A stretch of 64,000 nucleotides of DNA from an uncultured Candidatus Saccharibacteria bacterium (GTDB lineage Bacteria; Patescibacteriota; Saccharimonadia; Saccharimonadales; UBA10212): positions 122,850-186,849 of the forward strand of contig CAZAAL010000001.1 in the NCBI GenBank assembly GCA_964483315.1, written 5' to 3'. Below the pieces are notes generated by a model. That model was not told the origin of the DNA and did not search any database. It was given only the letters and a program-made list of their open reading frames with translations. Positions 3,417 to 36,926 of this stretch are shown one piece after another. The first letter of the stretch is position 1. Every line of letters starts with the position of its first letter. The position numbers were made by a program, and so were the translations under genes.

Positions 3417-4723
3417 GTTGAATGAATAATTTTTATAATTTTATTTTTTATTGAAGATACTCTACTATTATTGACTACAGAAATGGTTTGATTATCCGTT
3501 CTCAAGGTATCATTTTTAAAATTTCTATTCTCTCCTGGCTTTACAGAGTCGATAAATTTAACTAGGTCTTCGGTTGTATTATCCCAGGTAAATTTATGTG
3601 CTTCGTTGTGAATATTCTCTCTTATGTTATTTAAAAGGTTAACGTCCATAATTTCTTTTATTGCGTCTGCGAAAGAACGTGATGTACGATCTTTTGTAAC
3701 TATACCCAATTGCCGAGTTTTTATTATTTCTGAGAAAATATCTCCCGGCGGACAAATTGTCGGCAAATCAGTCCATATATGGTCGAGTACCCTTGTTCTA
3801 TGCGAGAATCTTGTTTCGCTTGAGTACTTATCACAATATATAGCTACATCCGCATCAACTAAGTATTCGTCCCTTTTACTGTAGGGTATCCAATCTTCCA
3901 TAAAAAATACTGAACTATTGGTTAGATTAAGTTTATTTGCAATTTTAATTGCTTCTGATGTTGCATTCATTTCGGGGACGTTTTTGTTCGGATGCTTTAT
4001 GCCGAGGAATACTAACTTAACTTTGTTATTGTGTATCTTTGGAATGGCCTCAATAATAGGCACTGCATCAAACCAATCCCAAATGCCTCCCGTCCAAACT
4101 AGTACAAGGTCATCACTTTTAAATCCAAACCTATTCCTTAGTTTACCTTTTTTTACCGGACTTTCTTTGGCAGTGCCCATGGGAACTATACCGAATCTGT
4201 CATATATATCGGACTCAAGTCTTATATTACTTGGTTTTATTATCCCCGAAGATACAGAAAAACCTATCCAAAAGTCCCTCTGTCTTTCATTAGAGCACAC
4301 AAAGTAATTCCCAACTTTTAGGTAGTTTTTATACATCTCAATTATTGCAAAGAATTCCTCGTCTTTGCTGTCAATATTTTTTGTACTAGAAAATTTGAGG
4401 CTCGAAAGGTATTCAATGGGAACTGGTGCGTATAAATCAAAAATAATTATTTTTTTGCCACGAACATACTCTGTCATTTCAGAGCTTAGCCATTGAGCAA
4501 ATATTATGTCACTAGAATCAAACAGCTTTTTATATTCGTCAGTCTTAGGATCTATGTATGAAACTTCGGGTAATCTAGAATTCTTAGGCGTAGGAGCATG
4601 TGTTGCAAGTGTGACGTCAAAATTTCTACCAAGAATTTTTGCTATATAATAATACCTGATTCCTGGGCCTGCCATTTTCTCGCCGATTACATCGTGACAA
4701 AAAACCAAAACTCTTTTATTCAC
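3413..4723 (-). CDS. glycosyltransferase (GT1/GT4-like)
   Basis: 436 aa. Start overlaps the downstream GT2 stop (operon-like). Rossmann-like N-terminus VLVFCHDVIGEKMAGPGIRYYY. Sits inside the polysaccharide locus. Confidence 0.55.
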   Translation of the reverse strand: MNKRVLVFCHDVIGEKMAGPGIRYYYIAKILGRNFDVTLATHAPTPKNSRLPEVSYIDPKTDEYKKLFDSSDIIFAQWLSSEMTEYVRGKKIIIFDLYAPVPIEYLSSLKFSSTKNIDSKDEEFFAIIEMYKNYLKVGNYFVCSNERQRDFWIGFSVSSGIIKPSNIRLESDIYDRFGIVPMGTAKESPVKKGKLRNRFGFKSDDLVLVWTGGIWDWFDAVPIIEAIPKIHNNKVKLVFLGIKHPNKNVPEMNATSEAIKIANKLNLTNSSVFFMEDWIPYSKRDEYLVDADVAIYCDKYSSETRFSHRTRVLDHIWTDLPTICPPGDIFSEIIKTRQLGIVTKDRTSRSFADAIKEIMDVNLLNNIRENIHNEAHKFTWDNTTEDLVKFIDSVKPGENRNFKNDTLRTDNQTISVVNNSRVSSIKNKIIKIIHST

Positions 4724-4745
4724 CAGTACTATTATAGACTATAAA

Positions 4746-6827
4746 TTATAGATTCACCTTAGAAGGAAAGGCTAAACCTATGCTAGGCATAATTAAAGTG
4801 CCATCAATCCCAAAAGTGAAGTACTCCAGGTATGCACCGGTTATTGATGGTGCTCTCCAGTCCATATCAAAAGTTCCGACCTGACCAGGAGGAACAATGG
4901 CTTCTTTCATGCGAACCTGGTTTTTTGTCCCAAGCCAACTGTAGGTTAGCGGAGAAAAAGGGCTATCTTTATATACTGGGTTTGCTACTAGTAGCCTGGT
5001 ATCACCTAATTCAATTTTCCCCCCTGAAACATCTAAAATTTTATGATCAAAATTCCGCCAAATCATATTGCCAGTATTCCTAATTTTAACTTGTCCAGTT
5101 GCAAGCTGATTTGGTTTCATGTTTAAAGGCGGGTTTATTGCGCCCACAAATGAATAAGTTGCAACTGGACTAGGGGTCGATAGTTTTAACTGTATTAAAG
5201 GACCATGCACAAATTTTACTCCATCAAGCACCAAAGAGAAATCATGCACATAGTTACTAGTTGCCTTATATGGAGCAGTAAATACTGCCTGGAAAGTGCC
5301 AATTTGTCCTGGTGCAACAGAGCTCTCAAGCAATCTTATCTGGTTTTTTGTCCCAAGCCATGAGGGATCAGTTCTCGGTTGGGCGTAGGGTGAGTTTTTA
5401 TAGTAAGGAGTTGCTATTCTAACCGGTCTTCTATTAATAGGTAAGGCTGAATCAGAGTACCAAGTTTCTGATCCAGTATTTTTAAGACGGATTTTTATTA
5501 AATACATATCACCTGGTAGTATTCCGACTGGATGATCAGTGGAAATTACAGTATACGCTAAATCAGGGACTGAATTAACTCTAAATTGCAGGCCTAGGTC
5601 ACTATAGACTTGTACTCCGTCTTGTACTAAGACCATGTTTAGTATTTCATTATTTATGCTATATTGAGGTGCTTTTAGTCTAAATTTAAATGTTGCCACC
5701 TCGCCAGGATTAACTTTTTGCTCCAGTAGCCTTATTTGATTTTTTGTTCCAAGCCATGAGGGATCAGAAGTATCTGCGAACGCAGTATTTTGGTAGCCTT
5801 TCATCATTATTCTAAATGGTCGGATTCCATTTGGTAGATTAACATCAGAATACCAAACCATCGATGACCCATTTCTAACCTTAAGCTCAACCTCTGCTAT
5901 GCTTCCATAAGACATGTTTTGTGGCGGATTAACCGCAGATATGAAGCTGTAAAATGGTCCAGTTGTGCTTCCAAACCACTGCTCAAAATTATTAACAAAA
6001 CTAATCCCGCCATTTAAAAACGGAGTATATCTGTAAAGTGCAACAGTAGCTCCATTATCCATGTGGATCGTAGTGCCATTAACGTTTGCATAACCATCGA
6101 AATAGGTTGGAGTTGATTGAGTGTATATTCGTTTGTGCCAACCTTGAGTCATATTTCCGCTGTAATTGGTAGGTGGATCATCTGAGTTATCCCATCCAGG
6201 TTTTTGTACGTTCCAGTTTACATTTCCTTCCGATCTTTCTTGGCTAAATTTGAGCATCCAAGTTGCCTTTATAACCTGCTTACTAAACCCTAGTGAATCG
6301 GTGTCACAATAGTATGGGCAATCATACCCCAATGCAATATAAACACATCCACCTGCATATTGACATGCCGTTACGCAACTAGCATTTGGATTACCATAAA
6401 GTGGTTGAGGGCAGGGAGTTAAAGTGGGGGGTGTACCGTAATAACAACCAGCTCCACCTGTGATTAAGCTTTGCTCTTTTTGTAGTGTTGCTAGGATTAC
6501 CTGAGGATTTAGTCCATAAACCTGTGAAGCACTGGCAATAACCTGACCGGCTGTTACATTAGAGCCAAATAAATATCCTTGACTTGGATTATAGCCAATC
6601 GGGTTGGGCGACGTAAACCCCTTGTTTGGACTGATACAGCTGTTAGGAAACTGATTTAAAAACGCATCAATCTGACCTGCAGACATAGATCCAGAGTTAT
6701 TAAATACAGCAGTGTCAATTAGTTTGTTCTGGTTATATGTAGCATCCACGCTTTGTACTGGCAATAATAAAATTAACCCTAAAGTTAGGGTTGATAAAAT
6801 ATATATTTTTTTTAAAACCTTGTTCAT
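4746..6827 (-). CDS. secreted Cys-rich protein with three ~100-aa repeats (DPSWLGTKNQIRLLE motif)
   Basis: N-terminal signal peptide (MNKVLKKIYILSTLTLGLILLLPVQSVDA). Three internal repeats, each ending ...DPSWLGTKNQIRLLE / YSWLGTKNQVRMKE. Function unknown. Confidence 0.6.
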   Translation of the reverse strand: MNKVLKKIYILSTLTLGLILLLPVQSVDATYNQNKLIDTAVFNNSGSMSAGQIDAFLNQFPNSCISPNKGFTSPNPIGYNPSQGYLFGSNVTAGQVIASASQVYGLNPQVILATLQKEQSLITGGAGCYYGTPPTLTPCPQPLYGNPNASCVTACQYAGGCVYIALGYDCPYYCDTDSLGFSKQVIKATWMLKFSQERSEGNVNWNVQKPGWDNSDDPPTNYSGNMTQGWHKRIYTQSTPTYFDGYANVNGTTIHMDNGATVALYRYTPFLNGGISFVNNFEQWFGSTTGPFYSFISAVNPPQNMSYGSIAEVELKVRNGSSMVWYSDVNLPNGIRPFRIMMKGYQNTAFADTSDPSWLGTKNQIRLLEQKVNPGEVATFKFRLKAPQYSINNEILNMVLVQDGVQVYSDLGLQFRVNSVPDLAYTVISTDHPVGILPGDMYLIKIRLKNTGSETWYSDSALPINRRPVRIATPYYKNSPYAQPRTDPSWLGTKNQIRLLESSVAPGQIGTFQAVFTAPYKATSNYVHDFSLVLDGVKFVHGPLIQLKLSTPSPVATYSFVGAINPPLNMKPNQLATGQVKIRNTGNMIWRNFDHKILDVSGGKIELGDTRLLVANPVYKDSPFSPLTYSWLGTKNQVRMKEAIVPPGQVGTFDMDWRAPSITGAYLEYFTFGIDGTLIMPSIGLAFPSKVNL

Positions 6828-23229: not shown

Positions 23230-24488
23230 TTAGAACTGCACAGTAGCTCTAAATAAGCAGTTGAGCCAAATGGTATCTTTTGGGGTAGTTTAGATTTGGT
23301 ATCGTGGGCATTTGCGAATGTAACTGTAAAATTTCCATAACGACCGTTTACATCATCCATCATCTTGGTTAAATCTTCCTCTTTATTCAACTCCTCAAAG
23401 AGGCTGGCTTGACCCCTTATAGATGGCTCGAGCCCATAGCACGTTACGCCCATCTCTTTAACGACTAGTCCAGGACGCTTTTTAAACAGTAAAAGGGCGC
23501 GCCTAAATATATCTTTGTCTGTATATACGCTGGTTTTAAACTTTTTACGAGCGTACCAAAAATCACCGCTACTAAACCGGGCGTAAACATACATGCCCCT
23601 TGCCGATACGTTTTTGTATCTAAGTTTCATGGCTGTTGAGTAGCTTAAATGAGCGAGTCGCTCGTAGATTTGCTCGTCGCTTGGGTTATATATGTCGAGC
23701 ACAAACTGCCTGCCTATTGATCCAAGCTTAGTTGGGTTGCCGTCTACCTCCCATCCACGAAGGCGTTGGTGCCAATCTAGCCCAACAACACTTTTAAAAA
23801 CACTATGCTTTAAAAGATTGGGGTTGGCGTCTAAAAACATCAAAGGAGTATGGATGCCGTAAGCTTTTAGCCTTGCTTCGTAGTGGTCGGCAATCCCGGG
23901 CAAATCGGTTAATTTTAGACTGCCTAAAACGTCTCTTAAATTGCTATGGGTTGTGACATCTAAACCGTCGGGCTTGTGCAGCCCGGCGGATACTTTAGCT
24001 AAAAATCGGTTAGTGGCTATACCTACGTTGCAAGTCACCCAACAGCCAACTTCGTATTTAAGTCGATCTTTTATTTCGTAGCCAATAGTTGTTAAAGTTT
24101 TTTGGTTTACCCAGCCTAGTGTGCCGTTAAAATCAATCACTCCTTCATCTATACTTTTCATGGTTATCTCGGGTGAGTAGCTTTTTAAAATAGCCAAAAG
24201 TTTTTGGTAAACATAGTGGTATTTTGGCGGGTCGGTTTCTAGCATTATAAGATTAGGCGCTAACTCCTTGGCGTCTTGCCAGGCCATTCCGGTTTTTATG
24301 CCTAAAGCTTTTGCCTCGTACGACGCAGCAATAATAATTGAACTTTTAACCAAGCGATTTGTGACTGCAATTGGTTTACCCCTTAGGTGTGGGCGGGCCT
24401 GTTGTTCAACGGTCGCAAAGCACGAATTCAAATCGATATGCATTATATTGGGCTCGGCTTTATTTAGGCTGTAATTAAGGTCGTTCAT
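23226..24488 (-). CDS. Y-family DNA polymerase (UmuC/DinB-like)
   Basis: N-terminal IMHIDLNSCFATVEQQARPHLRGKPIAVTNR (catalytic DxD region of the IMS family). 420 aa. Start ATG overlaps the stop of the upstream small ORF (ATGA). Confidence 0.85.
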   Translation of the reverse strand: MNDLNYSLNKAEPNIMHIDLNSCFATVEQQARPHLRGKPIAVTNRLVKSSIIIAASYEAKALGIKTGMAWQDAKELAPNLIMLETDPPKYHYVYQKLLAILKSYSPEITMKSIDEGVIDFNGTLGWVNQKTLTTIGYEIKDRLKYEVGCWVTCNVGIATNRFLAKVSAGLHKPDGLDVTTHSNLRDVLGSLKLTDLPGIADHYEARLKAYGIHTPLMFLDANPNLLKHSVFKSVVGLDWHQRLRGWEVDGNPTKLGSIGRQFVLDIYNPSDEQIYERLAHLSYSTAMKLRYKNVSARGMYVYARFSSGDFWYARKKFKTSVYTDKDIFRRALLLFKKRPGLVVKEMGVTCYGLEPSIRGQASLFEELNKEEDLTKMMDDVNGRYGNFTVTFANAHDTKSKLPQKIPFGSTAYLELLCSSN

Positions 24489-24772
24489 AGGCTAGCCTCC
24501 GCAATATGAATCAGAGTCCAGGTTAGTCTGGCCGAATCAAACTCTAACCTAAAATCAGCCGAGCCGTCGGACACATCAAAAATATGAACATTGCGTTGAC
24601 CTTTGGTAGTCGGGTGCCTAAGCCCCAGCTCACCAAAAATATAATCACGATTTTTATAGCGCATTTTTAACGGCAAGCAGTAGCGCGCTTCGGCTCCGTT
24701 GTCTTCAAAAATTGCCAAAACTTTTACACGTTTATTTATTTTTATTGGTTGGTTTTCCATACAATCCTCCAA
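24485..24772 (-). CDS. small protein translationally coupled to the Y-family polymerase (YolD-like accessory protein is a hypothesis)
   Basis: 95 aa. Its TGA stop overlaps the polymerase ATG (ATGA at 24485-24488). No recognisable catalytic motif. Confidence 0.5.
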   Translation of the reverse strand: MEDCMENQPIKINKRVKVLAIFEDNGAEARYCLPLKMRYKNRDYIFGELGLRHPTTKGQRNVHIFDVSDGSADFRLEFDSARLTWTLIHIAEASL

Positions 24773-25086
24773 CTAAACAGATTTACTGAATTTGACCAGG
24801 CAGGGATTTATAAGTTGGAGCTAACCGCAACGCCGTTGTTACCGATGCCTATAAACGTTGGCTTTTTAAGCGGGGAGCTATGTGATTGTATGGATGCATG
24901 CTTTTTATGGCAAGCAAAATTTATTAAAGCAACCCAACCAATTTATGAGTAGCTAATAAAAGTATAACCTAAATAATATCTAACTACATAATTGGTACAT
25001 ATGTTAAAAAAATGTAGATGGTTTTAGATATAAAAATAACGCCTATGGGGCGCTTTTTCGAATAATTTAAATTAAAAGTTTGTCTC

Positions 25087-25120
25087 GGGAGGGGTGGTCT
25101 CTTTCGAGACCACCCCTCCC
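25087..25120 (-). terminator. GC-rich hairpin terminator of the foreign gene
   Basis: Perfect 15-bp stem gggaggggtggtctc / gagaccacccctccc with loop tttc, located 10 nt after the minus-strand stop. Confidence 0.6.
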
Positions 25121-25130
25121 TCGCACCGAA

Positions 25131-25838
25131 CTACTCCACCTCGAGGGTGTAGTCGAGCGGGTTCGACCGGACCAGGCCGGCACCGACCGAATCGACGCTC
25201 ACCACCTCTCCACCGTTGCCGGTGGAGACGAACCTACCGGTGGGCTTGCCACCGGCACAGGTCAGGAAATGATTCCCGACCTTGAAGTCCGTCTTCTGGC
25301 TCTTGCTGGCCACTGGCACGCGTGCGCCGGCGTCGAGCTTCTTCTGGGCGACTGCGCGAGAGACGATCTCGATCGAGTTCGGACCCGCGCCGTAGCACAG
25401 GAAGAAGCTTCGATCGCTCATCTGCACGCACTGCCCGCGGGCGACCAGGTAGATCCAGTAGCCTGGATCGAACAGCCCTTCCGGGCTGTCGTATCCCGGC
25501 TCCGGGATGAAGTACAGCACCTTGTCCAGGGGCTGGTAGTAGCCCAGGTAGAGGGTGCTCCTGCTGCCGGGCAGCTGGATCGCGAGCTCGGCGATTCCCT
25601 GCGTCAGGGTCTTCGACCCGTCCTCGTAGTAGATGGTGGTCGGGAGGACTCCTTCCTGCTGGTCGAGGAGCTGGCCGAGCCCGGTGGTTGCCTGGTCGGG
25701 CGTTCCGCCCTTCAGGCAGTACACCGTGTCGGCCGGAGGCATCACGATGTCGTCGCCGCCGTTCGCCAGCGCGGTGCTGGTGAGGACGCTTGCCGTCAGG
25801 ACGAGCCCGACGACGAGTGCGATGAGTCTCTTCAAGAG
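25131..25838 (-). CDS. secreted hypothetical protein encoded in a high-GC (about 65%) foreign island
   Basis: Signal peptide MKRLIALVVGLVLTASVLTSTALA if the TTG start at 25836 is used (GGAGG SD lies 8 nt upstream). The ORF track gives a GTG start at 25844. Codon usage is GC3-rich, unlike the surrounding genes. Confidence 0.65.
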   Translation of the reverse strand, partial: LLKRLIALVVGLVLTASVLTSTALANGGDDIVMPPADTVYCLKGGTPDQATTGLGQLLDQQEGVLPTTIYYEDGSKTLTQGIAELAIQLPGSRSTLYLGYYQPLDKVLYFIPEPGYDSPEGLFDPGYWIYLVARGQCVQMSDRSFFLCYGAGPNSIEIVSRAVAQKKLDAGARVPVASKSQKTDFKVGNHFLTCAGGKPTGRFVSTGNGGEVVSVDSVGAGLVRSNPLDYTLEVE

Positions 25839-25927
25839 ACTCACCTCCTTTCGGTTGTTGAGTTGTATTCGGTGCGCGAGTACATCAAAAAAGCTGTAAA
25901 AGCCCTTTTTGATGTCTCAGAACCAAT

Positions 25928-25956
25928 ACTTTACTAGAAAATTAATAAAATGTCAA
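25928..25956 (-). promoter_or_regulatory. sigma70-like promoter (TTGACA-17-TAAAGT) driving the foreign gene
   Basis: Minus-strand TTGACAttttattaattttctagTAAAGT lies in AT-rich native-like sequence abutting the GC-rich island. Confidence 0.45.
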
Positions 25957-25976
25957 TATATAAACTAATGTTATTA

Positions 25977-26252
25977 TTAAACAACTACGCCGTAAAATCC
26001 TTCAAGCAATTTATAAACTACATAGGCTGGCCACACCAAAGCTTTTAAAAAGCCTGTAACAACGGCGCCAAAACCAACAGCGGCTTGCATCCAATAAACT
26101 AATGCCCCAACAAAGCCAACAAAATAAAGTGCTCCGCTTGTACCATGGTTAGATTTGTTCCCAGGTTTTTTGCTCCACTCTTTCCACTCTTTTGCGCCTT
26201 TTACTCTGGCCTTTATTTCGATTTGTGGGTCTTCTGATTTTTGCTTTGCCAT
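25977..26252 (-). CDS. small membrane protein
   Basis: 91 aa, two hydrophobic helices, K-rich N-terminus. Confidence 0.45.
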   Translation of the reverse strand: MAKQKSEDPQIEIKARVKGAKEWKEWSKKPGNKSNHGTSGALYFVGFVGALVYWMQAAVGFGAVVTGFLKALVWPAYVVYKLLEGFYGVVV

Positions 26253-28619: not shown

Positions 28620-28934
28620 ATGTATACCACAAAAAAAGACAAGCGAACTTATGCCGATAGAAGAGATTATCTAATTAAAGCCGTTAGTAATCGACGCAGG
28701 ATACTTAAGCAAAGATCTATTGAATATAAAGGTGGTAAATGCCAGATTTGTGGCTATAAAAGATTCCAAGGTGCTCTTGATTTACACCATATTGATCCAA
28801 AAACAAAAGAATTTGGCATAAGCTATAAAGGTTATTCAAGATCGTGGGTAAAAATTCAAACTGAACTAGATAAATGTATTCTAGTTTGTGCGAATTGTCA
28901 TAGAGAGATTGAGGGCGGTTTTATCACCATTTGA
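28620..28934 (+). CDS. HNH endonuclease (free-standing)
   Basis: CQICGYKRFQGALDLHHIDP...CANCHREIE is an HNH ββα-metal motif. 104 aa. Ends 13 nt from the 3' end of the intron-containing tRNA. Confidence 0.75.
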   Translation: MYTTKKDKRTYADRRDYLIKAVSNRRRILKQRSIEYKGGKCQICGYKRFQGALDLHHIDPKTKEFGISYKGYSRSWVKIQTELDKCILVCANCHREIEGGFITI

Positions 28935-28946
28935 TTTACATTTCTC

Positions 28947-29245
28947 TGGCTCCGGGGACTGGATTCGAACCAGCGACCTAGTGGTTACACCTTAATCACT
29001 ACTTTCATAATGTGTGGACTATCTTATCATCCGATTACTCGGAGCAGGGCGCTAATGAGAGTTTATTGTTAGGCTCACTCTCTAGTCTCTGAACCTTCCA
29101 AGATCCTTTATCCTAATTTTGGCTTGGCTGCAGATTAGCATATCTTGCGACTTAGCTTTCCCGCAATTCACCCTATTTTCGAGTTTGGTTACCCAAACAA
29201 GCTGCAATTTTACAGCCACCCGCTCTACCGCTGAGCTACCCCGGA
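28947..29245 (-). tRNA. tRNA-Asn(GUU) interrupted by a 224-nt group I intron in the anticodon loop
   Basis: 5' half (minus strand) is TCCGGGG-TA-GCTC-AGCGGTA-GAGC-G-GGTGG-CTGT, at 29212-29245. 3' half is TAA-CCACT-AGGTC-GCTGG-TTCGAAT-CCAGT-CCCCGGA-G-CCA, at 28947-28987. Joined, they give a 75-nt cloverleaf with loop CUGUUAA, U1-A72 and G73, closely matching bacterial tRNA-Asn. Confidence 0.8.
28988..29211 (-). mobile_element. group I self-splicing intron (IC3-like, similar to the cyanobacterial tRNA-Leu intron core)
   Basis: Core motifs GGGAAAGCUAAG, GCAGCCAAGCC and GGUUCAGAGACUAGAGAG are present. The 5' exon ends in U (GCUGU), which can pair with intron GCAGC (P1). The intron ends in G (AAGGUG). 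There is no internal ORF. Confidence 0.7.
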
Positions 29246-29342
29246 ATAAGCCAGAGAAATATAAACCATATTTTTAATGAACAGTTGATTAACAGATGAG
29301 ATTATACGTACGTTATGGTTTAAAATCAACTACGAAAGCAAA

Positions 29343-31584: not shown

Positions 31585-31712
31585 AAACACTTGTCAAACA
31601 GATTAAATTGCTTATACTTAATTATTAGTATCACTGACACACAAATAATTTAACAAAAATTGTGCAGTGGGACTCGCACCCTACTACTGTGAATAAGATA
31701 AAAATAACCTGG

Positions 31713-34700
31713 ATGAGAATATTCATGGTCACTGCTGTTATTGTGGCCTTGTTTTTCGTGGTGAGTTGGGGTGTTTCCAAATTAGTACCGGACAAAGTTA
31801 CTTTTAGGGGTAGCATTAAAACCGAAAAAGGCTCATTGCCCGATGGTTCATATGACGTAAGGGTAAGGTCTTTTAATGCGCTAAACTCATCAGACTTGTT
31901 ATACCAAATGGATTTTAAATCCATCCAGGTTAAAGACGGTCAATATGAGCTTGGCTACAATCTAAACAAAGAGTTTGCTTCTGTGCCTGCAGTAGTGGAG
32001 ATTTGTATAGACTCCGGTGATGGGTTTAAGGATAAGGATGGTAATGTATGTGCCGATGGTAGCTCGGACAGTATTTATGACTATGCACTTTGCCCCTACT
32101 ATATGCGGTCTAGGGCTGATGGATCATTCGCTTGGTTGATTAACCGAAAGGTTTACACCGAGCGCAATATGATTAAATGTCCGAATCTTGAAAAAGGCAC
32201 AACAGCTAGTAGTGAAAGCATAATCGAAAAGGCAAACGAGGCTGGGCTTAACGTATCGCTAATAAGCGCTGGCAATAAAAATCAGGTGGTTAACAACATC
32301 ACGAATATCAACCAAGTTGATGATCCGCAAACTCTAGTTATTGAGGGTAACGTGCTTTATATAAGTGGTGGCAATAGTGTAGTTTTACCAAGCTCTGGCT
32401 ATGGGGATACAGTTGATAATGATACGACTTATAGTGCTGGTAGTGGTTTGGTTTTAAACTCTACGACCTTTAGCCGTGAGTCGGGTTCGACCAATGGTCA
32501 GATTGAGGTCTGGGATGGCTCAAACTGGACTGATTTATCTGCCGGGACTAATGGGCAAGTCCTAACTATCGTGGGCGGTACGCCTGTCTGGCAATCAGGC
32601 GGAGCAGAAACTGATGGTGTAATTGGTAACGAGATAACAAATGTTGATGGAACAACTGGCTTGGCTCGAACTGGTACCGGTACTACTGGTGACCCATTTA
32701 TCGTGGCGCTTACCACAACCGGCGTTAGCGCTGGAACTTACAACAATGTCACAGTTAACGCCTACGGGCGTGTTACGTCTGCAAGCAATATTGCTTATCT
32801 GACATCTGAAACCGATGGGATAGTTGGTAATGAGCTAACTAATCTTACGGCGGGTGATGGTAAAGGCATACTTACCCGTAGCGGTACAGGTACCGGTGGA
32901 GACCCATATACCTTGAGCGTAGCTACTTGTGGCTTAAACCAAATTTTTAAATCTAATGGCAGTAGCTGGGCCTGCTCCTCCGACGTCGACACCGACACAA
33001 CCTACTCAGCTGGTAATGGTCTAAGTTTATCTACCACTACTTTTTCAGTTAACTCACCAACTTGTGCTGGCACCGACAAACTCCAATGGAATGGATCAGC
33101 TTTTGTATGTTCAGCTGATGTAGATACCGATACTGACACCACTGACTTTAATGTTTCAGCTCAAGGTACAGTTGGCTCACAAAACATAGCTGATGGTGGA
33201 ACAGTCTCATTCAGTAACGGCACAGGCACTACCGCCACTCGCTCAGGTTCAGCAGTTACCTATAGCCTAAACGATACAGCTGTAACAACTGGCACATATG
33301 GAACTAGTTCTAGTGTTGCTCAGTTCACAGTCGACCAACAAGGTCGAATCACTGGAGCCAGCTCAGTAGCTATAGACTTTGCCGGTAATGCTGTAACTAG
33401 CGTAACAGCCGGCAGTGGACTAACTAACGGTGGTGGCCCCGGAGCAATCACCATTAATGTTGGAGCTGGTAATGGTATTACAGTAAACGCTAACGACATA
33501 ACCGTAGATACTCTAGACTCAGCCGATGCTTTATCTTCAACCACATCAAATGGTTCTGGCTTAGAAGTCCTAGCTTCTGGTATTGGTCTATTACAAGGCT
33601 GTTCAGATAACCAAATCCTTAAATGGAATGAAGCTGGTGATCTATGGGGATGTGCTAATGACACAGATACCGATACCGACACTACAAACTTCAACATTCG
33701 AGCCAATGCCGGAGCTAGCGCCAATATCTCATCCGGCGGTACAGTTAGCTTTGTAGATGGTACTGGTACCACGGCTTCACGCTCTGGTAATGACATAGCC
33801 TTTAATCTAACTACAACTGGGGTTAGTGCTAATAGCTACGGTTCATCTACTCAAGTACCAGTCTTTACAGTAGATGCCTACGGACGTATATCTAGTGTTA
33901 CTAATACCAGTATTAACTTCCCGGCAGAGGTAGATGGTGTAGTAGGCAATGAAGTTACCAATGCCACATCAAATGCTGGCTTAACTCGTTCTGGTACTGG
34001 CACAGGTGGTGACCCATACACTCTAGGCGTATTACTACCATCTGCTACTGATGCCTTATCTTCAACAACTTCAACAGGCTCTGGTTTAGAACTCACATCA
34101 TCAGGACTTTCATTAATCCAAGGCTGTTCTAATAACCAAATCCTTAAATGGAATGAGACAAGTGATGTTTGGGCCTGCTCCTCCGACGTCGACACCGACA
34201 CAACCTACTCAGCTGGTAATGGTCTAAGTTTATCTACCACTACTTTTTCAGTTAACTCACCAACTTGTGCTGGCACCGACAAACTCCAATGGAATGGATC
34301 AGCTTTTGTATGTTCAGCTGATGTAGATACCGATACTGACACCACTGACTTTAATGTTTCAGCTCAAGGTACAGTTGGCTCACAAAACATAGCTGATGGT
34401 GGAACAGTCTCATTCAGTAACGGCACAGGCACTACCGCCACTCGCTCAGGTTCAGCAGTTACCTATAGCCTAAACGATACAGCTGTAACAACTGGCACAT
34501 ATGGAACTAGTTCTAGTGTTGCTCAGTTCACAGTCGACCAACAAGGTCGAATCACTGGAGCCAGCTCAGTAGCTATAGACTTTGCCGGTAATGCTGTAAC
34601 TAGCGTAACAGCCGGCAGTGGACTAACTAACGGTGGTGGCCCCGGAGCAATCACCATTAATGTTGGAGCTGGTAATGGTATTACAGTAAACGCTAACGAC

Positions 34701-36926
34701 ATAACCGTAGATACTCTAGACTCAGCCGATGCTTTATCTTCAACCACATCAAATGGTTCTGGCTTAGAAGTCCTAGCTTCTGGTATTGGTCTATTACAAG
34801 GCTGTTCAGATAACCAAATCCTTAAATGGAATGAAGCTGGTGATCTATGGGGATGTGCGGCGGATGCAAGCGGTGGCTCAATGACAATTGGCACGATCAA
34901 TTCACAAACAAAAAGCGCTGACGGAGCTGTAATATCATCAGGCGTATTGTATATGCAAACTGCCGACGGCACTAACCCTGGCTTAGTGAGTACTGGTGCA
35001 CAAAGTTTTGCAGGCAATAAAACATTTAGTGATGCATTAATCGCAACTTGTACGAATACTTCTACTAATGTTTTATGTGACGGCGGCAACACTAGGGGCG
35101 CAGGAATCGTCTTAGGATCTAACGATAACTTTGGCCTGACTTTTGAAACAAACAACACTACTGCAATGACAATTGCTAACAATGGTGCAATTACTATTGG
35201 AGCAACAACGATTGATCAGGCTATAACAATTGATAATGGGACAGGTGCGCTTAGCCTAGGTAATAGTAGTGATGCAAAGACAATCAATATTGGTACCGGT
35301 ACTGGTATCGATACTATCAATATTGGTACCGGTGCAACCTCTGCCGATGCAATAACCTTTGGTAATACGGGGGTAGCTACTACCCTAACATTCAACTCTG
35401 GAGTTTCTACTACTACTGCAATGTCATTTAACCTAAATTCATTAACTAGCGGCAACGGACTGGTCTTAAGCGCAACTAGCGTGACATCGGGCGAGGTATT
35501 CGAGATTCTTGGGCCTTCTAGCAGGAGTATTTTAAGAGTCAAAAATGAATCGGCTGACCCACTGGATGATCAACGGGTAATAATTGGTCAGGGTGGTTTG
35601 GCAAGCTCTAAACCGGATGAGCTTGCTCGGGATCAGCTCTATGTGTTTGGTCGAATTAACTATAGCTGGAACATGTTTAGCCAAGATTTTTTGGGTGGAG
35701 CTACGAATCTAACAGCGGATGGCACGGCATTTAACGCATACTATGACGAAGTGGCAGGTTCTGGTGGTACTGCACCATCTGGAGTTATGAACCAACAAAG
35801 TCTTGCATCTGGCTCTGGTGCTGGTCGGTTAACATTTAGTGGTACCCTTGGTACAGGACCTTGGGCTAGCTTGTATGGCACGAACGTTAACGTTACAGAA
35901 CGCTCGCTCAACCCGGTCTTTGAGGCTCGCATACAGGCAAGCTCAAACACAGACCAAAGGGCAATCGCTGGCTTTACAGATATTGCACTTAACACGGCCA
36001 TTGCAGCCGATACAAACAATTCAGCTAACGAGGTATTCTTTAGAAAAACAGCTGCTGGCACAAACTGGGAGGCAGTCACCCGAAACGCAAGCGGAGCAGA
36101 AAATGTCACGGGATTAGGAACCGCTTGTGCTGGAGGTACAGCGTGTACAACTGCTGCAATGCGGACAATGAGGATCGAGCTAGAAAACGTTGGCGCAAAC
36201 GGAACCGCTAGGTTTTATATTGATGGTACATTGGTAGCGACTCATACTACCGCAGCTGTGCCGGCTAACACTACAAGACTTGGCTGGAAGATTGGCACAA
36301 CACCAACCACAACAACCTACACTGGTCGGGTAGTTGATATAGATTACGTTAGAGTTTGGAGTGACGACCCTCCAACTGATGTGTTGGGCCAGGCATTAAG
36401 TACTACAATTATTGATAATTCTAACCAAGAGCAAGTTGATCAGATTGAGCTAACGACATTTGATTTAGTTGGTAACCAAGAAGAGCTAGCTAACTTAATC
36501 GATGGCCTAAGAGATGATGTTAATTGGCTAAAAGGTCAGGGTGTAGCCGATGCAGCTCTGAATGGGGGTTTGGTATCCGGCAATACAACTTTTGCTGATT
36601 TTGTGACATTTAATAGCGGGGTCACGTTTGACTCTACAGTAGATTTTGGAGGGGATGTTAAATTTATTGGTCAGGCTGAATTTGATGGGCACGTAATTTT
36701 TGGAACCGATGGTGCTGGTACGCTCGAGCTTGAAGCGGGTCAAACATCAACTAGATTTGCATTTGCAAAACCTTATCAAAAGCCTCCTGTTGTTACTGTA
36801 ACACCACTTGATTATGATGCCGGTTTTAGGCTCACAAACGTAGACGAAACAGGCTTTACGATTACTATTTCGACTAGTCAGAATACTCAAACTAGGTTTA
36901 ACTGGATTGTTGTTGGGCGTCAATAG
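31713..36926 (+). CDS. giant repeat-containing cell-surface protein with C-terminal H-type-lectin-like domain (candidate adhesin)
   Basis: The ORF track gives a GTG start at 31662. ATG 31713 (MRIFMVTAVIVALFFVVSWG, a TM/signal anchor) is more plausible. The body has ~200-aa G/T/S-rich repeats with the recurring motif GTYG..S.V..FTVD..GRI(T/S). The C-terminus FAFAKPYQKPPVVTVTPLDYDAGFRLTNVDETGFTITISTSQNTQTRFNWIVVG fits the H-type lectin fold pattern. Confidence 0.75.
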   Translation: MRIFMVTAVIVALFFVVSWGVSKLVPDKVTFRGSIKTEKGSLPDGSYDVRVRSFNALNSSDLLYQMDFKSIQVKDGQYELGYNLNKEFASVPAVVEICIDSGDGFKDKDGNVCADGSSDSIYDYALCPYYMRSRADGSFAWLINRKVYTERNMIKCPNLEKGTTASSESIIEKANEAGLNVSLISAGNKNQVVNNITNINQVDDPQTLVIEGNVLYISGGNSVVLPSSGYGDTVDNDTTYSAGSGLVLNSTTFSRESGSTNGQIEVWDGSNWTDLSAGTNGQVLTIVGGTPVWQSGGAETDGVIGNEITNVDGTTGLARTGTGTTGDPFIVALTTTGVSAGTYNNVTVNAYGRVTSASNIAYLTSETDGIVGNELTNLTAGDGKGILTRSGTGTGGDPYTLSVATCGLNQIFKSNGSSWACSSDVDTDTTYSAGNGLSLSTTTFSVNSPTCAGTDKLQWNGSAFVCSADVDTDTDTTDFNVSAQGTVGSQNIADGGTVSFSNGTGTTATRSGSAVTYSLNDTAVTTGTYGTSSSVAQFTVDQQGRITGASSVAIDFAGNAVTSVTAGSGLTNGGGPGAITINVGAGNGITVNANDITVDTLDSADALSSTTSNGSGLEVLASGIGLLQGCSDNQILKWNEAGDLWGCANDTDTDTDTTNFNIRANAGASANISSGGTVSFVDGTGTTASRSGNDIAFNLTTTGVSANSYGSSTQVPVFTVDAYGRISSVTNTSINFPAEVDGVVGNEVTNATSNAGLTRSGTGTGGDPYTLGVLLPSATDALSSTTSTGSGLELTSSGLSLIQGCSNNQILKWNETSDVWACSSDVDTDTTYSAGNGLSLSTTTFSVNSPTCAGTDKLQWNGSAFVCSADVDTDTDTTDFNVSAQGTVGSQNIADGGTVSFSNGTGTTATRSGSAVTYSLNDTAVTTGTYGTSSSVAQFTVDQQGRITGASSVAIDFAGNAVTSVTAGSGLTNGGGPGAITINVGAGNGITVNANDITVDTLDSADALSSTTSNGSGLEVLASGIGLLQGCSDNQILKWNEAGDLWGCAADASGGSMTIGTINSQTKSADGAVISSGVLYMQTADGTNPGLVSTGAQSFAGNKTFSDALIATCTNTSTNVLCDGGNTRGAGIVLGSNDNFGLTFETNNTTAMTIANNGAITIGATTIDQAITIDNGTGALSLGNSSDAKTINIGTGTGIDTINIGTGATSADAITFGNTGVATTLTFNSGVSTTTAMSFNLNSLTSGNGLVLSATSVTSGEVFEILGPSSRSILRVKNESADPLDDQRVIIGQGGLASSKPDELARDQLYVFGRINYSWNMFSQDFLGGATNLTADGTAFNAYYDEVAGSGGTAPSGVMNQQSLASGSGAGRLTFSGTLGTGPWASLYGTNVNVTERSLNPVFEARIQASSNTDQRAIAGFTDIALNTAIAADTNNSANEVFFRKTAAGTNWEAVTRNASGAENVTGLGTACAGGTACTTAAMRTMRIELENVGANGTARFYIDGTLVATHTTAAVPANTTRLGWKIGTTPTTTTYTGRVVDIDYVRVWSDDPPTDVLGQALSTTIIDNSNQEQVDQIELTTFDLVGNQEELANLIDGLRDDVNWLKGQGVADAALNGGLVSGNTTFADFVTFNSGVTFDSTVDFGGDVKFIGQAEFDGHVIFGTDGAGTLELEAGQTSTRFAFAKPYQKPPVVTVTPLDYDAGFRLTNVDETGFTITISTSQNTQTRFNWIVVGRQ
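32967..33655 (+). repeat. 689-bp direct repeat, copy 1 (inside the giant gene)
   Basis: Identical to 34170-34858 (offset 1203 bp). Encodes an identical 229-aa block. Confidence 0.85.
34170..34858 (+). repeat. 689-bp direct repeat, copy 2 (inside the giant gene)
   Basis: By eye it is a perfect copy of 32967-33655. The 514-bp segment between the copies is a diverged relative of the same unit. Confidence 0.85.

Follow-up and report, generated by a model that had tools for sequence, protein, structure and literature searches.

A group I intron in a Saccharibacteria tRNA-Asn(GUU) gene and the HNH endonuclease gene that flanks it

The DNA described here is a 64-kb window (64,000 nucleotides, all of which were analysed) of contig CAZAAL010000001.1 from an uncultured Candidatus Saccharibacteria bacterium (GCA_964483315.1). 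On its minus strand lies what is very probably a tRNA-Asn(GUU) gene of the type found in Saccharimonadia, a group of Patescibacteria (candidate phyla radiation, CPR), split between anticodon bases 35 and 36 by an IA-like group I ribozyme that carries no open reading frame (ORF). A free-standing gene for an HNH endonuclease runs towards it on the opposite strand, and relatives of this endonuclease are found inside tRNA-Asn introns, next to intron-bearing tRNA-Asn genes, and next to intron-less tRNA-Asn genes in phages. An earlier description made from the letters alone (the sequence-only reading) had reported the split tRNA gene; the HNH gene, which is the most interesting part of the locus, was absent from it. 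The features of the locus are listed in Table 1.

The split tRNA-Asn gene and its ribozyme

ARAGORN in its default mode reported zero tRNA genes in the window. With introns allowed, it reported one gene, c[28947,29245], in which anticodon base 35 is followed by a 224-nt intron. From 29245 to 28947 the minus strand reads TCCGGGGTAGCTCAGCGGTAGAGCGGGTGGCTGT, then 224 nt, then TAACCACTAGGTCGCTGGTTCGAATCCAGTCCCCGGAGCCA, and the two acceptor halves, TCCGGGG (29245-29239) and CCCCGGA-G-CCA (28957-28947), stand 299 nt apart on this strand. The 5' exon holds the 5' strand of the acceptor stem, the D arm, the 5' strand of the anticodon stem and the loop bases C32, U33, G34 and U35. The 3' exon resumes with U36, A37 and A38 and continues through the 3' strand of the anticodon stem, the variable loop, the T arm and the 3' strand of the acceptor stem to G73, and CCA is encoded at its end. 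The intron is thus framed by two anticodon bases (U35, intron, U36), and excision of 29211-28988 gives a regular 75-nt cloverleaf with the anticodon loop CUGUUAA, which ARAGORN calls tRNA-Asn(gtt). The sequence-only reading had placed the exons, the 224-nt insert and its boundaries at these same positions, and the sequence and ARAGORN in intron mode agree on them. Its statement that the spliced tRNA is almost identical to E. coli tRNA-Asn was too strong, as the best full-length E. coli matches listed for it are annotated tRNA-Asn at 80% identity. The CPR origin that it suggested does fit, since the exons are identical to the tRNA-Asn exons published for the Saccharimonadia genome GCA_016700375.1. 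The spliced tRNA-Asn of that genome is 100% identical to the intron-less tRNA-Asn of another genome.

Table 1. Positions of the features at the tRNA-Asn locus in the window
Feature	Position	Strand	Basis
tRNA-Asn(GUU) 5' exon, 34 nt	29212-29245	-	ARAGORN intron mode and sequence
Group I intron, 224 nt, ORF-less	28988-29211	-	Rfam RF00028 and hand-placed helices
tRNA-Asn(GUU) 3' exon, 41 nt	28947-28987	-	ARAGORN intron mode and sequence
P1	29215-29211 with 29206-29202	-	
P2, GUAA loop	29198-29183	-	
P3	29175-29169 with 29051-29045	-	
P4	29165-29160 with 29134-29129	-	
P5, plus distal GCAA hairpin	29156-29155 with 29139-29138	-	
P6	29128-29126 with 29095-29093	-	
P6a	29122-29116 with 29104-29098	-	
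P7	29089-29083 with 29021-29016	-	
P7.1-like hairpin, 26 nt, 6 bp	29082-29057	-	
P8, GUAA loop	29043-29030	-	
P9, GAAA loop	29012-28997	-	
Terminal G of the intron	28988	-	
Free-standing HNH endonuclease gene, 104 amino acids (aa)	28620-28934	+	Pfam PF01844, E=4.7e-6
Inverted repeat arm 1, 23 nt	28929-28951		Repeat search
Inverted repeat arm 2, 23 nt	29249-29271		Repeat search
Promoter-like TTGATT-17 nt-TATAAT	29301-29329	-	Consensus scan, 10/12 matches, consensus match alone
Terminator-like hairpin ending the fasciclin gene	29369-29342		

Covariance models were used to classify the insert. Rfam Intron_gpI (RF00028) matched 29221-28996 on the minus strand over the whole model (positions 1-253 of 253), with 72.5 bits against a gathering score of 50 and an E value of 1.9e-16. 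This match is far above chance, and RF00028 is the sole Rfam family that reached its threshold in the window. The same search had been named as a check on the group I assignment of the sequence-only reading, and it bears that assignment out; the core motifs quoted there (GGGAAAGCUAAG, GCAGCCAAGCC and GGUUCAGAGACUAGA) are all present in the intron. A hand-drawn model of helices P1-P9, based on the window sequence, treats P7 as a pseudoknot and includes an additional hairpin between P7 and P3'; it was checked by pair counts and single-sequence folding. At P1, the exon bases CUGU (29215-29212) pair with the intron bases GCAG (29205-29202), and the last base of the 5' exon forms the U.G wobble (U29212.G29205) at the 5' splice site. 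Between P7 and P3' the intron has an insertion of 29 nt when compared with the Rfam consensus. The loop of the P7.1-like hairpin, GAGCCUAACAAUAA, is conserved among Saccharimonadia tRNA-Asn introns.

The helices were evaluated on an alignment (A2) of the window intron, with 9/8 flanking exon bases, and 16 ORF-less tRNA-Asn introns, of which six came from Table S3 of Nakagawa et al. (PMC13011429) and ten from loci fetched in this analysis. With the hand-drawn helices, 87.7% of the cells were paired, compared with 36-45% when the 3' partners were slid by one to three columns, and the observed pairing values were reached by none of 500 shuffles. Compensatory changes were found in 38 of the 59 pairs. 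They affect all six pairs of P2, four or five pairs each of P3, P4, P6a and the P7.1-like hairpin (five of six in the last), and also P5. In P7, all six pairs are invariant and 100% of the cells are paired. The splice-site U.G is likewise invariant (17/17), and the next inner P1 pair covaries (CG in nine sequences, AU in four, GC in two, GU and UG in one each); this wobble after the 5'-exon U, and the terminal G of the intron, had been read correctly from the sequence alone. RNAalifold on A2 found P1, P2, P3, P4, P5 and P6 with many compensatory pairs, and did not recover P7, P7.1, P8 and P9, owing to the pseudoknot and to register errors of the MAFFT alignment, which puts P8 and P9 out of register. 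When the 17 sequences were folded singly, the P8 and P9 hairpins formed in all of them, and the P9 loop was usually GAAA.

Group I introns at this position are already known. Williams 2020 (bioRxiv 10.1101/2020.01.27.920355) extended the intron-bearing bacterial tRNAs from four classical to 21 settings, and tRNA-Asn 35/36 is the Asn.4Ug of that work according to Nakagawa et al. (bioRxiv 2025; mSystems 2026, PMC13011429). The latter authors described 15 tRNA-Asn and three tRNA-Asp genes with 35/36 group I introns in 95 complete Patescibacteria genomes. They also reported that the tRNA-Asn intron of GCA_016700035.1 (Saccharimonadia) undergoes precise, GTP-dependent self-splicing at 35/36 in vitro, and that a terminal G-to-C mutation blocks exon ligation. 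In global alignments the window intron is 79% identical to this tested intron and 79-80% identical to the introns of GCA_016700035.1, GCA_000503915.1 and GCA_016700315.1; over the aligned positions of A2, its identity to the Saccharimonadia members is 64-79%. By these similarities it is a further member of the published tRNA-Asn 35/36 family of Patescibacteria. Both the intron type and the insertion site were already published, with in vitro splicing of a homologue, so the site is not new and the suggestion that it might be does not hold.

Group I classes are defined in part by peripheral elements, P7.1 and P7.2 among them (PMC3984707). The window intron has one P7.1-like hairpin, and by this P7-P3' hairpin and the published typing of its homologues it would be classed as IA-like. 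A scan of metagenomes with the core motif GAAGGTTCAGAGACTAGNNNNNGAG returned this motif mostly outside tRNA genes, with no tRNA around it in about 60 of 80 loci (L085-L164), and close relatives of the ribozyme core therefore interrupt other genes. As the scan yielded mostly non-tRNA introns, its sample of ORF-less tRNA-Asn introns is small.

The HNH gene, its relatives and the chromosomal setting

The HNH gene converges on the tRNA gene, and its stop codon (TGA, 28932-28934) is separated from the tRNA 3' end by a 12-nt spacer. In addition to the Pfam match, the protein matches the PHROG family phrog_2255 'HNH endonuclease' (E=5e-29); it has no NCBIfam match. BLASTP aligns it end to end with four intron-encoded ORFs at 48-63% identity (E=6e-47). 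In an alignment (A1) of the protein with four intron-encoded HNH ORFs translated from Table S3 of Nakagawa et al., 37 columns are invariant, and so is the pattern CxxC...HH...N...CxxCH. A profile search with A1 gave no match to a solved structure. The window protein has Glu at the last metal-ligand position (Glu98, for the last His of CANCHREIH). This residue was considered as a mark of degeneracy or of free-standing copies and was rejected as such, since 41 of 59 intron-encoded relatives share it.

Genomic relatives were collected in a scan of one genome per species, which gave 395 of them. The best 80 of the 395, which are 60-72% identical to the window protein and come nearly all from metagenome-assembled genomes (MAGs) of Patescibacteria, were sorted by position relative to tRNA-Asn with ARAGORN in intron mode and exon patterns. 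About 59 of the 80 loci have the HNH gene within the P1 loop of a tRNA-Asn intron, on the same strand, and these introns are about 490-625 nt long. Twelve loci have a free-standing HNH gene directly upstream of, and on the same strand as, a tRNA-Asn gene with an ORF-less intron of 174-397 nt. A single locus (L028) has it downstream of a tRNA with an ORF-less intron, again on the same strand, and another (L019) has it upstream of an intron-less tRNA-Asn; the remaining seven contigs were too short to sort. As in the window, an HNH gene adjoins a gene with an ORF-less intron at 13 other genomic loci, and an endonuclease gene just outside the intron is found in the window and in about one sixth of the related loci examined. 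Three ORF-less tRNA-Asn introns with an upstream HNH gene were also found in the metagenome sample.

In the upstream class, the HNH stop codon is 0-90 nt from the tRNA 5' end at most loci and 296 nt from it in L066. In L012 (4300-4312) and L024 (4327-4336) the stop codon falls within the 5' end of tRNA-Asn (L012: ...AAT CCG GGG TAG); the protein and tRNA genes therefore overlap, and they are probably co-transcribed. A neighbour-joining tree, drawn without support values, has free-standing HNH copies in at least four separate places, which indicates that the gene moved in or out of the intron repeatedly. Remnants of a 5' exon upstream of free-standing HNH genes were found in none of these loci except L066. 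This locus (4001-5069) contains an HNH gene, then a remnant of the tRNA-Asn 5' end, a GIY-YIG-like ORF (recognised by eye) and a complete tRNA-Asn with a 397-nt intron, an arrangement that resembles nested insertions of endonuclease genes.

A conserved promoter-like sequence, TTGACGGTTACAC...GGTGCTATACCAT, was noticed about 35 nt upstream of the HNH start codon in L027, L031, L033, L035 and L051. In the Saccharimonadia loci with an upstream free-standing HNH gene it ends about 10 nt before the HNH ATG, which suggests that the 5' leader of such genes is very short or absent. In the window, TGGTATAGC stands in a similar position before the HNH gene.

Viral contigs are a second source of relatives. 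More than 590 were found, the best of them 49-63% identical, and 80 loci from IMG/VR (L215-L294) were examined. The viral HNH genes sit in phage tRNA arrays, and the group I core motif was found at none of the 80 loci. At 48 of 79 loci, the tRNA gene that adjoins the HNH gene is an intron-less tRNA-Asn, most often directly downstream and on the same strand, at -15 to +11 nt from the HNH stop codon. After dereplication at 90% identity, this neighbour was present at 33 of 57 loci, and half of the downstream neighbours (19 of 38) were Asn, for which the background is 8.5% (binomial P = 3e-11). Some viral loci have tRNA-Asn on both sides of the HNH gene; the two flanking genes have little in common beyond the anticodon loop, and their comparison for a target signature was uninformative. 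Among cultured phages, 441 records contain an HNH relative. Bacillus phage Bastille (L296) is annotated with the order tRNA-Asn / HNH endonuclease / tRNA-Asn and Klebsiella phage Muenster (L297) with tRNA-Asn / HNH; in Bacteroides phage DAC15 the HNH relative lies in a tRNA array without adjoining Asn. No paper in the literature library searched links an HNH family to tRNA-Asn.

The tRNA-plus-intron cassette of the window is exactly bracketed by the two arms of an inverted repeat, with 20 of 23 bases complementary. Arm 1 consists of the last HNH codon and the stop codon, the 12-nt spacer and the 3'-terminal AGCCA of the tRNA, and arm 2 begins 3 nt upstream of the tRNA 5' end. In a comparison of 71 tRNA-Asn loci, no other showed so strong a leader/trailer complementarity (score 14, with a median of 6 and a best shuffle of 10). 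The repeat could be a leader-trailer stem in the precursor RNA. It could also be the footprint or the substrate of an inversion that flipped the cassette from the usual same-direction arrangement. If the cassette is flipped back, the tRNA 5' end comes to lie 20 nt after the HNH stop codon, within the range of the upstream class. One orientation of the cassette was found in all seven independent assemblies.

The surrounding genes are of ordinary chromosomal types. Those close to the tRNA encode a DinB-like polymerase, DUF1801, PepSY, fasciclin, TetR and UppP/BacA proteins, and those farther out encode GlmS, glycosyltransferases, LepA and a 1754-aa surface-type protein. The promoter-like site is situated about 56 nt upstream of the tRNA 5' end, after the terminator hairpin of the fasciclin gene. 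Contigs assembled from seven separate sequencing runs show the locus at 98.9-100% identity, and it is therefore stably kept. An intron-less allele, for which a comparison with related genomes had been suggested earlier, was not found at this locus in the synteny comparison of relatives. For the fasciclin neighbour there is a gap in the relatives from 99% to 72% identity. In GCA_964573095.1 (about 70% protein identity) the TetR-fasciclin...DUF1801 region is kept, without a tRNA or HNH gene there, so the tRNA/HNH module is not at a fixed chromosomal position. This relative, which together with Logan contigs makes up L211-L214, carries a heliorhodopsin gene near the region.

Two further regions of the window were noted. 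At 24000-26000 there is a local G+C peak of 48%, compared with about 38% around it, with long overlapping ORFs on both strands, such as 25080-25937 (+) and 25131-25844 (-); a 285-aa ORF of this peak has no Pfam, NCBIfam or PHROG match. The 1754-aa ORF (31662-36926, +; G+C 45%) has a weak C-terminal match to an H-type lectin and nothing else, and its product is probably a large surface protein.

Splicing, mobility and alternative explanations

Maturation of the tRNA would follow the usual course for a group I intron. The gene would be transcribed from its own promoter-like site, and the intron would fold into P1-P9 with the P3/P7 pseudoknot and the additional P7.1-like hairpin. The internal guide GCAG would pair with CUGU of the 5' exon and hold U35 in the U.G wobble, and an external guanosine would attack after U35. 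The terminal G (28988) would then occupy the G-binding site in P7, and ligation of the exons would yield the 75-nt tRNA with the loop CUGUUAA. We infer self-splicing of the window intron from this established pathway; the in vitro proof comes from the 79%-identical homologue.

A more general matter is how such an intron may spread. In collaborative homing, an established model, the same site comes to be used by a free-standing endonuclease and by an ORF-less intron, and later recombination puts the endonuclease gene inside the intron (PMC3984707). The window HNH protein belongs by its relatives to a family that appears specialised on tRNA-Asn genes, and we see about an even chance that it serves, or until recently served, as the mobility partner of the intron in this sense. 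Alleles of tRNA-Asn without an intron would be cut by the protein at the insertion site or close to it. By splitting the HNH target site, the intron would shield its own genome, and repair would copy the intron and the endonuclease gene into the cut allele.

Several observations weigh against such a partnership. The convergent, opposite-strand arrangement is unique to the window and was found in none of about 100 other loci. In L019 (2295-2694), a Saccharibacteria MAG, the HNH gene is directly upstream of an uninterrupted tRNA-Asn, and the tRNA-Asn neighbours of the HNH genes in phages are all uninterrupted. Since HNH genes reside together with uninterrupted tRNA-Asn in these cases, immunity cannot rest on the intron alone, and there is no obvious killing of intron-less alleles by the endonuclease in the genome that carries it. 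At least seven ORF-less tRNA-Asn introns on metagenome contigs have both flanks present and no HNH gene nearby. A consensus scan of the plus strand found no promoter-like site for the HNH gene of the window.

The strongest alternative is that the HNH gene plays no part in intron mobility today. The gene would then encode a decaying or independently selfish endonuclease whose insertion next to tRNA-Asn genes is incidental, and the intron would be a passenger, immobile and inherited vertically. This explanation is a serious one, to which we would assign somewhat less than an even chance. It agrees with the lack of a nearby HNH gene for most of the ORF-less tRNA-Asn introns sampled from metagenomes, with the position of the HNH family beside intron-less tRNA-Asn in phages and L019, and with the syntenic region of the ~70%-identical relative, which has neither the tRNA nor the HNH gene. 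It fits less well with the state of the gene, as the ORF is full length with all Cys, His and Asn residues of the motif present, and contigs from independent samples agree at 99-100% identity over the sequence that covers it. Having Glu as the last ligand residue is the norm of the family and no defect. Moreover, the family is found in three states around one target gene, as collaborative homing predicts.

These three states can be arranged in a tentative scheme, which we consider possible and do not favour: one HNH family would have followed tRNA-Asn from a free-standing position by an intron-less tRNA-Asn (phage), to one by an ORF-less 35/36 intron (CPR), to one inside the P1 loop (most CPR cases). 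The pair in the window would have been further rearranged, with the cassette flipped relative to the HNH gene, possibly via recombination between the repeats. If this scheme is true, the locus would be a natural cellular example of the collaborative-homing route to mobile group I introns. The published survey judged tRNA introns to be largely immobile because few of them encode endonucleases (PMC13011429); under the three-state scheme, the 'endonuclease-less' CPR tRNA introns would be more mobile than published. If the HNH protein cuts intron-less tRNA-Asn, it would offer a testable system for the merger of free-standing endonucleases with ORF-less introns and a route for intron spread among CPR bacteria.

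The ribozyme could also be a splicing-dead relic in a tRNA pseudogene, which we consider very improbable. Three points count against an intact ribozyme. The minimum-free-energy z-score of the whole precursor is just -2.0 versus shuffles, a modest value that is not unusual for a pseudoknotted ribozyme. P6a contains an A.C mismatch (A 29118 opposite C 29102), the sole blemish of the window copy, and P10 is weak, with 2-3 pairs. Against a relic stand the core helices, the U.G wobble, the terminal G and the invariant bases of P7 and J8/7, all of which are intact, and the differences from homologues, which are largely compensatory. The exons match a published tRNA-Asn whose spliced form is the same as an intron-less tRNA-Asn of another genome, and in published complete genomes the intron-bearing copy is usually the sole tRNA-Asn (PMC13011429).

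The sequence-only reading had found a close likeness to the Anabaena tRNA-Leu IC3 intron, which would make the window intron a relative of the cyanobacterial tRNA-Leu(UAA) lineage. The two do share universal core motifs (P4 GGGAA, P6 AGCCAAG and P7 CAGAGACU) and a similarly small size. The likeness was not upheld beyond these features, and an IC3 affiliation is highly improbable. Global identity to the Nostoc tRNA-Leu intron is 61%, compared with about 57% for shuffled sequence and with 79-80% for the Saccharimonadia tRNA-Asn introns. The Nostoc intron goes from P7 directly into P3', whereas the window intron has the 26-nt hairpin there. Covariance-model typing assigned 25 of 28 introns at 35/36 to subgroup IA and zero Patescibacteria tRNA introns to IC (PMC13011429), and among phages the nearest matches are introns in genes such as that for DNA polymerase.

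Least credible is a tRNA-Thr(UGU) gene with the intron at 33/34 and both boundaries shifted by two bases: a 5' exon ending in U33 (29214) and an intron ending in G 28990 would also give U(-1), a terminal G and 224 nt, and Thr(tgt) 33/34 is the ARAGORN call for many homologous tRNA-Asn intron loci, but this call is a known ARAGORN/tFind artefact for tRNA-Asn 35/36 introns (PMC13011429), the sequenced in vitro product of a homologue places excision at 35/36 (PMC13011429), and the reading is rejected because U35.G is the wobble that marks the splice site (U33-A in P1 is a Watson-Crick pair), because the tRNA body is of the Asn type (by the ARAGORN call here, the E. coli matches listed and an intron-less tRNA-Asn with identical exons), and because the exons are identical to those of GCA_016700375.1.

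Comparison with known systems

The nearest known system is the set of Patescibacteria tRNA-Asn 35/36 introns (PMC13011429), which resemble the window intron in host gene, insertion site and ribozyme architecture. The window intron comes from a different genome and is slightly shorter than the published Saccharimonadia tRNA-Asn introns (224 nt versus 227-256). As a tRNA-Asn intron it adds little, given that earlier publications cover the family, the unusual 35/36 site and self-splicing. The locus illustrates once more why CPR genomes seem to lack tRNA-Asn when they are searched with standard tRNA finders. The difference lies in the endonuclease gene. Endonuclease genes were reported solely inside introns of more than 500 bp, where they encode HNH proteins, and free-standing or flanking endonuclease genes are not mentioned in that study (PMC13011429). 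In the window, the HNH gene is outside the intron and on the opposite strand. The flanking convergent HNH gene and its link to phages are therefore the more useful lead, and the arrangement is possibly undescribed.

The Nostoc PCC 7120/Anabaena tRNA-Leu(UAA) IC3 intron is alike in being small and ORF-less, in its location in a tRNA anticodon loop, in its P3-P9 core and in its chemistry. It differs in its insertion site (34/35), its subgroup and the lack of a P7-P3' hairpin, and its identity to the window intron is near the shuffled background. For the endonuclease, T4 SegB (PMC2330249) is a comparable case of a free-standing endonuclease gene among phage tRNA genes, although SegB belongs to a different nuclease family (GIY-YIG).

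Trans-homing of the I-TevIII intron by T4 mobE (PMC2790892) is a related system. Collaborative homing (PMC3984707) is alike in combining an ORF-less intron with a free-standing HNH-family endonuclease that adjoins the interrupted gene, and the likeness extends to the fact that relatives of the window HNH occur inside the same intron in other genomes. That system was described in a phage protein gene, whereas the window pair is on a CPR chromosome, in a tRNA gene and in an unusual convergent orientation, with a putative target site.

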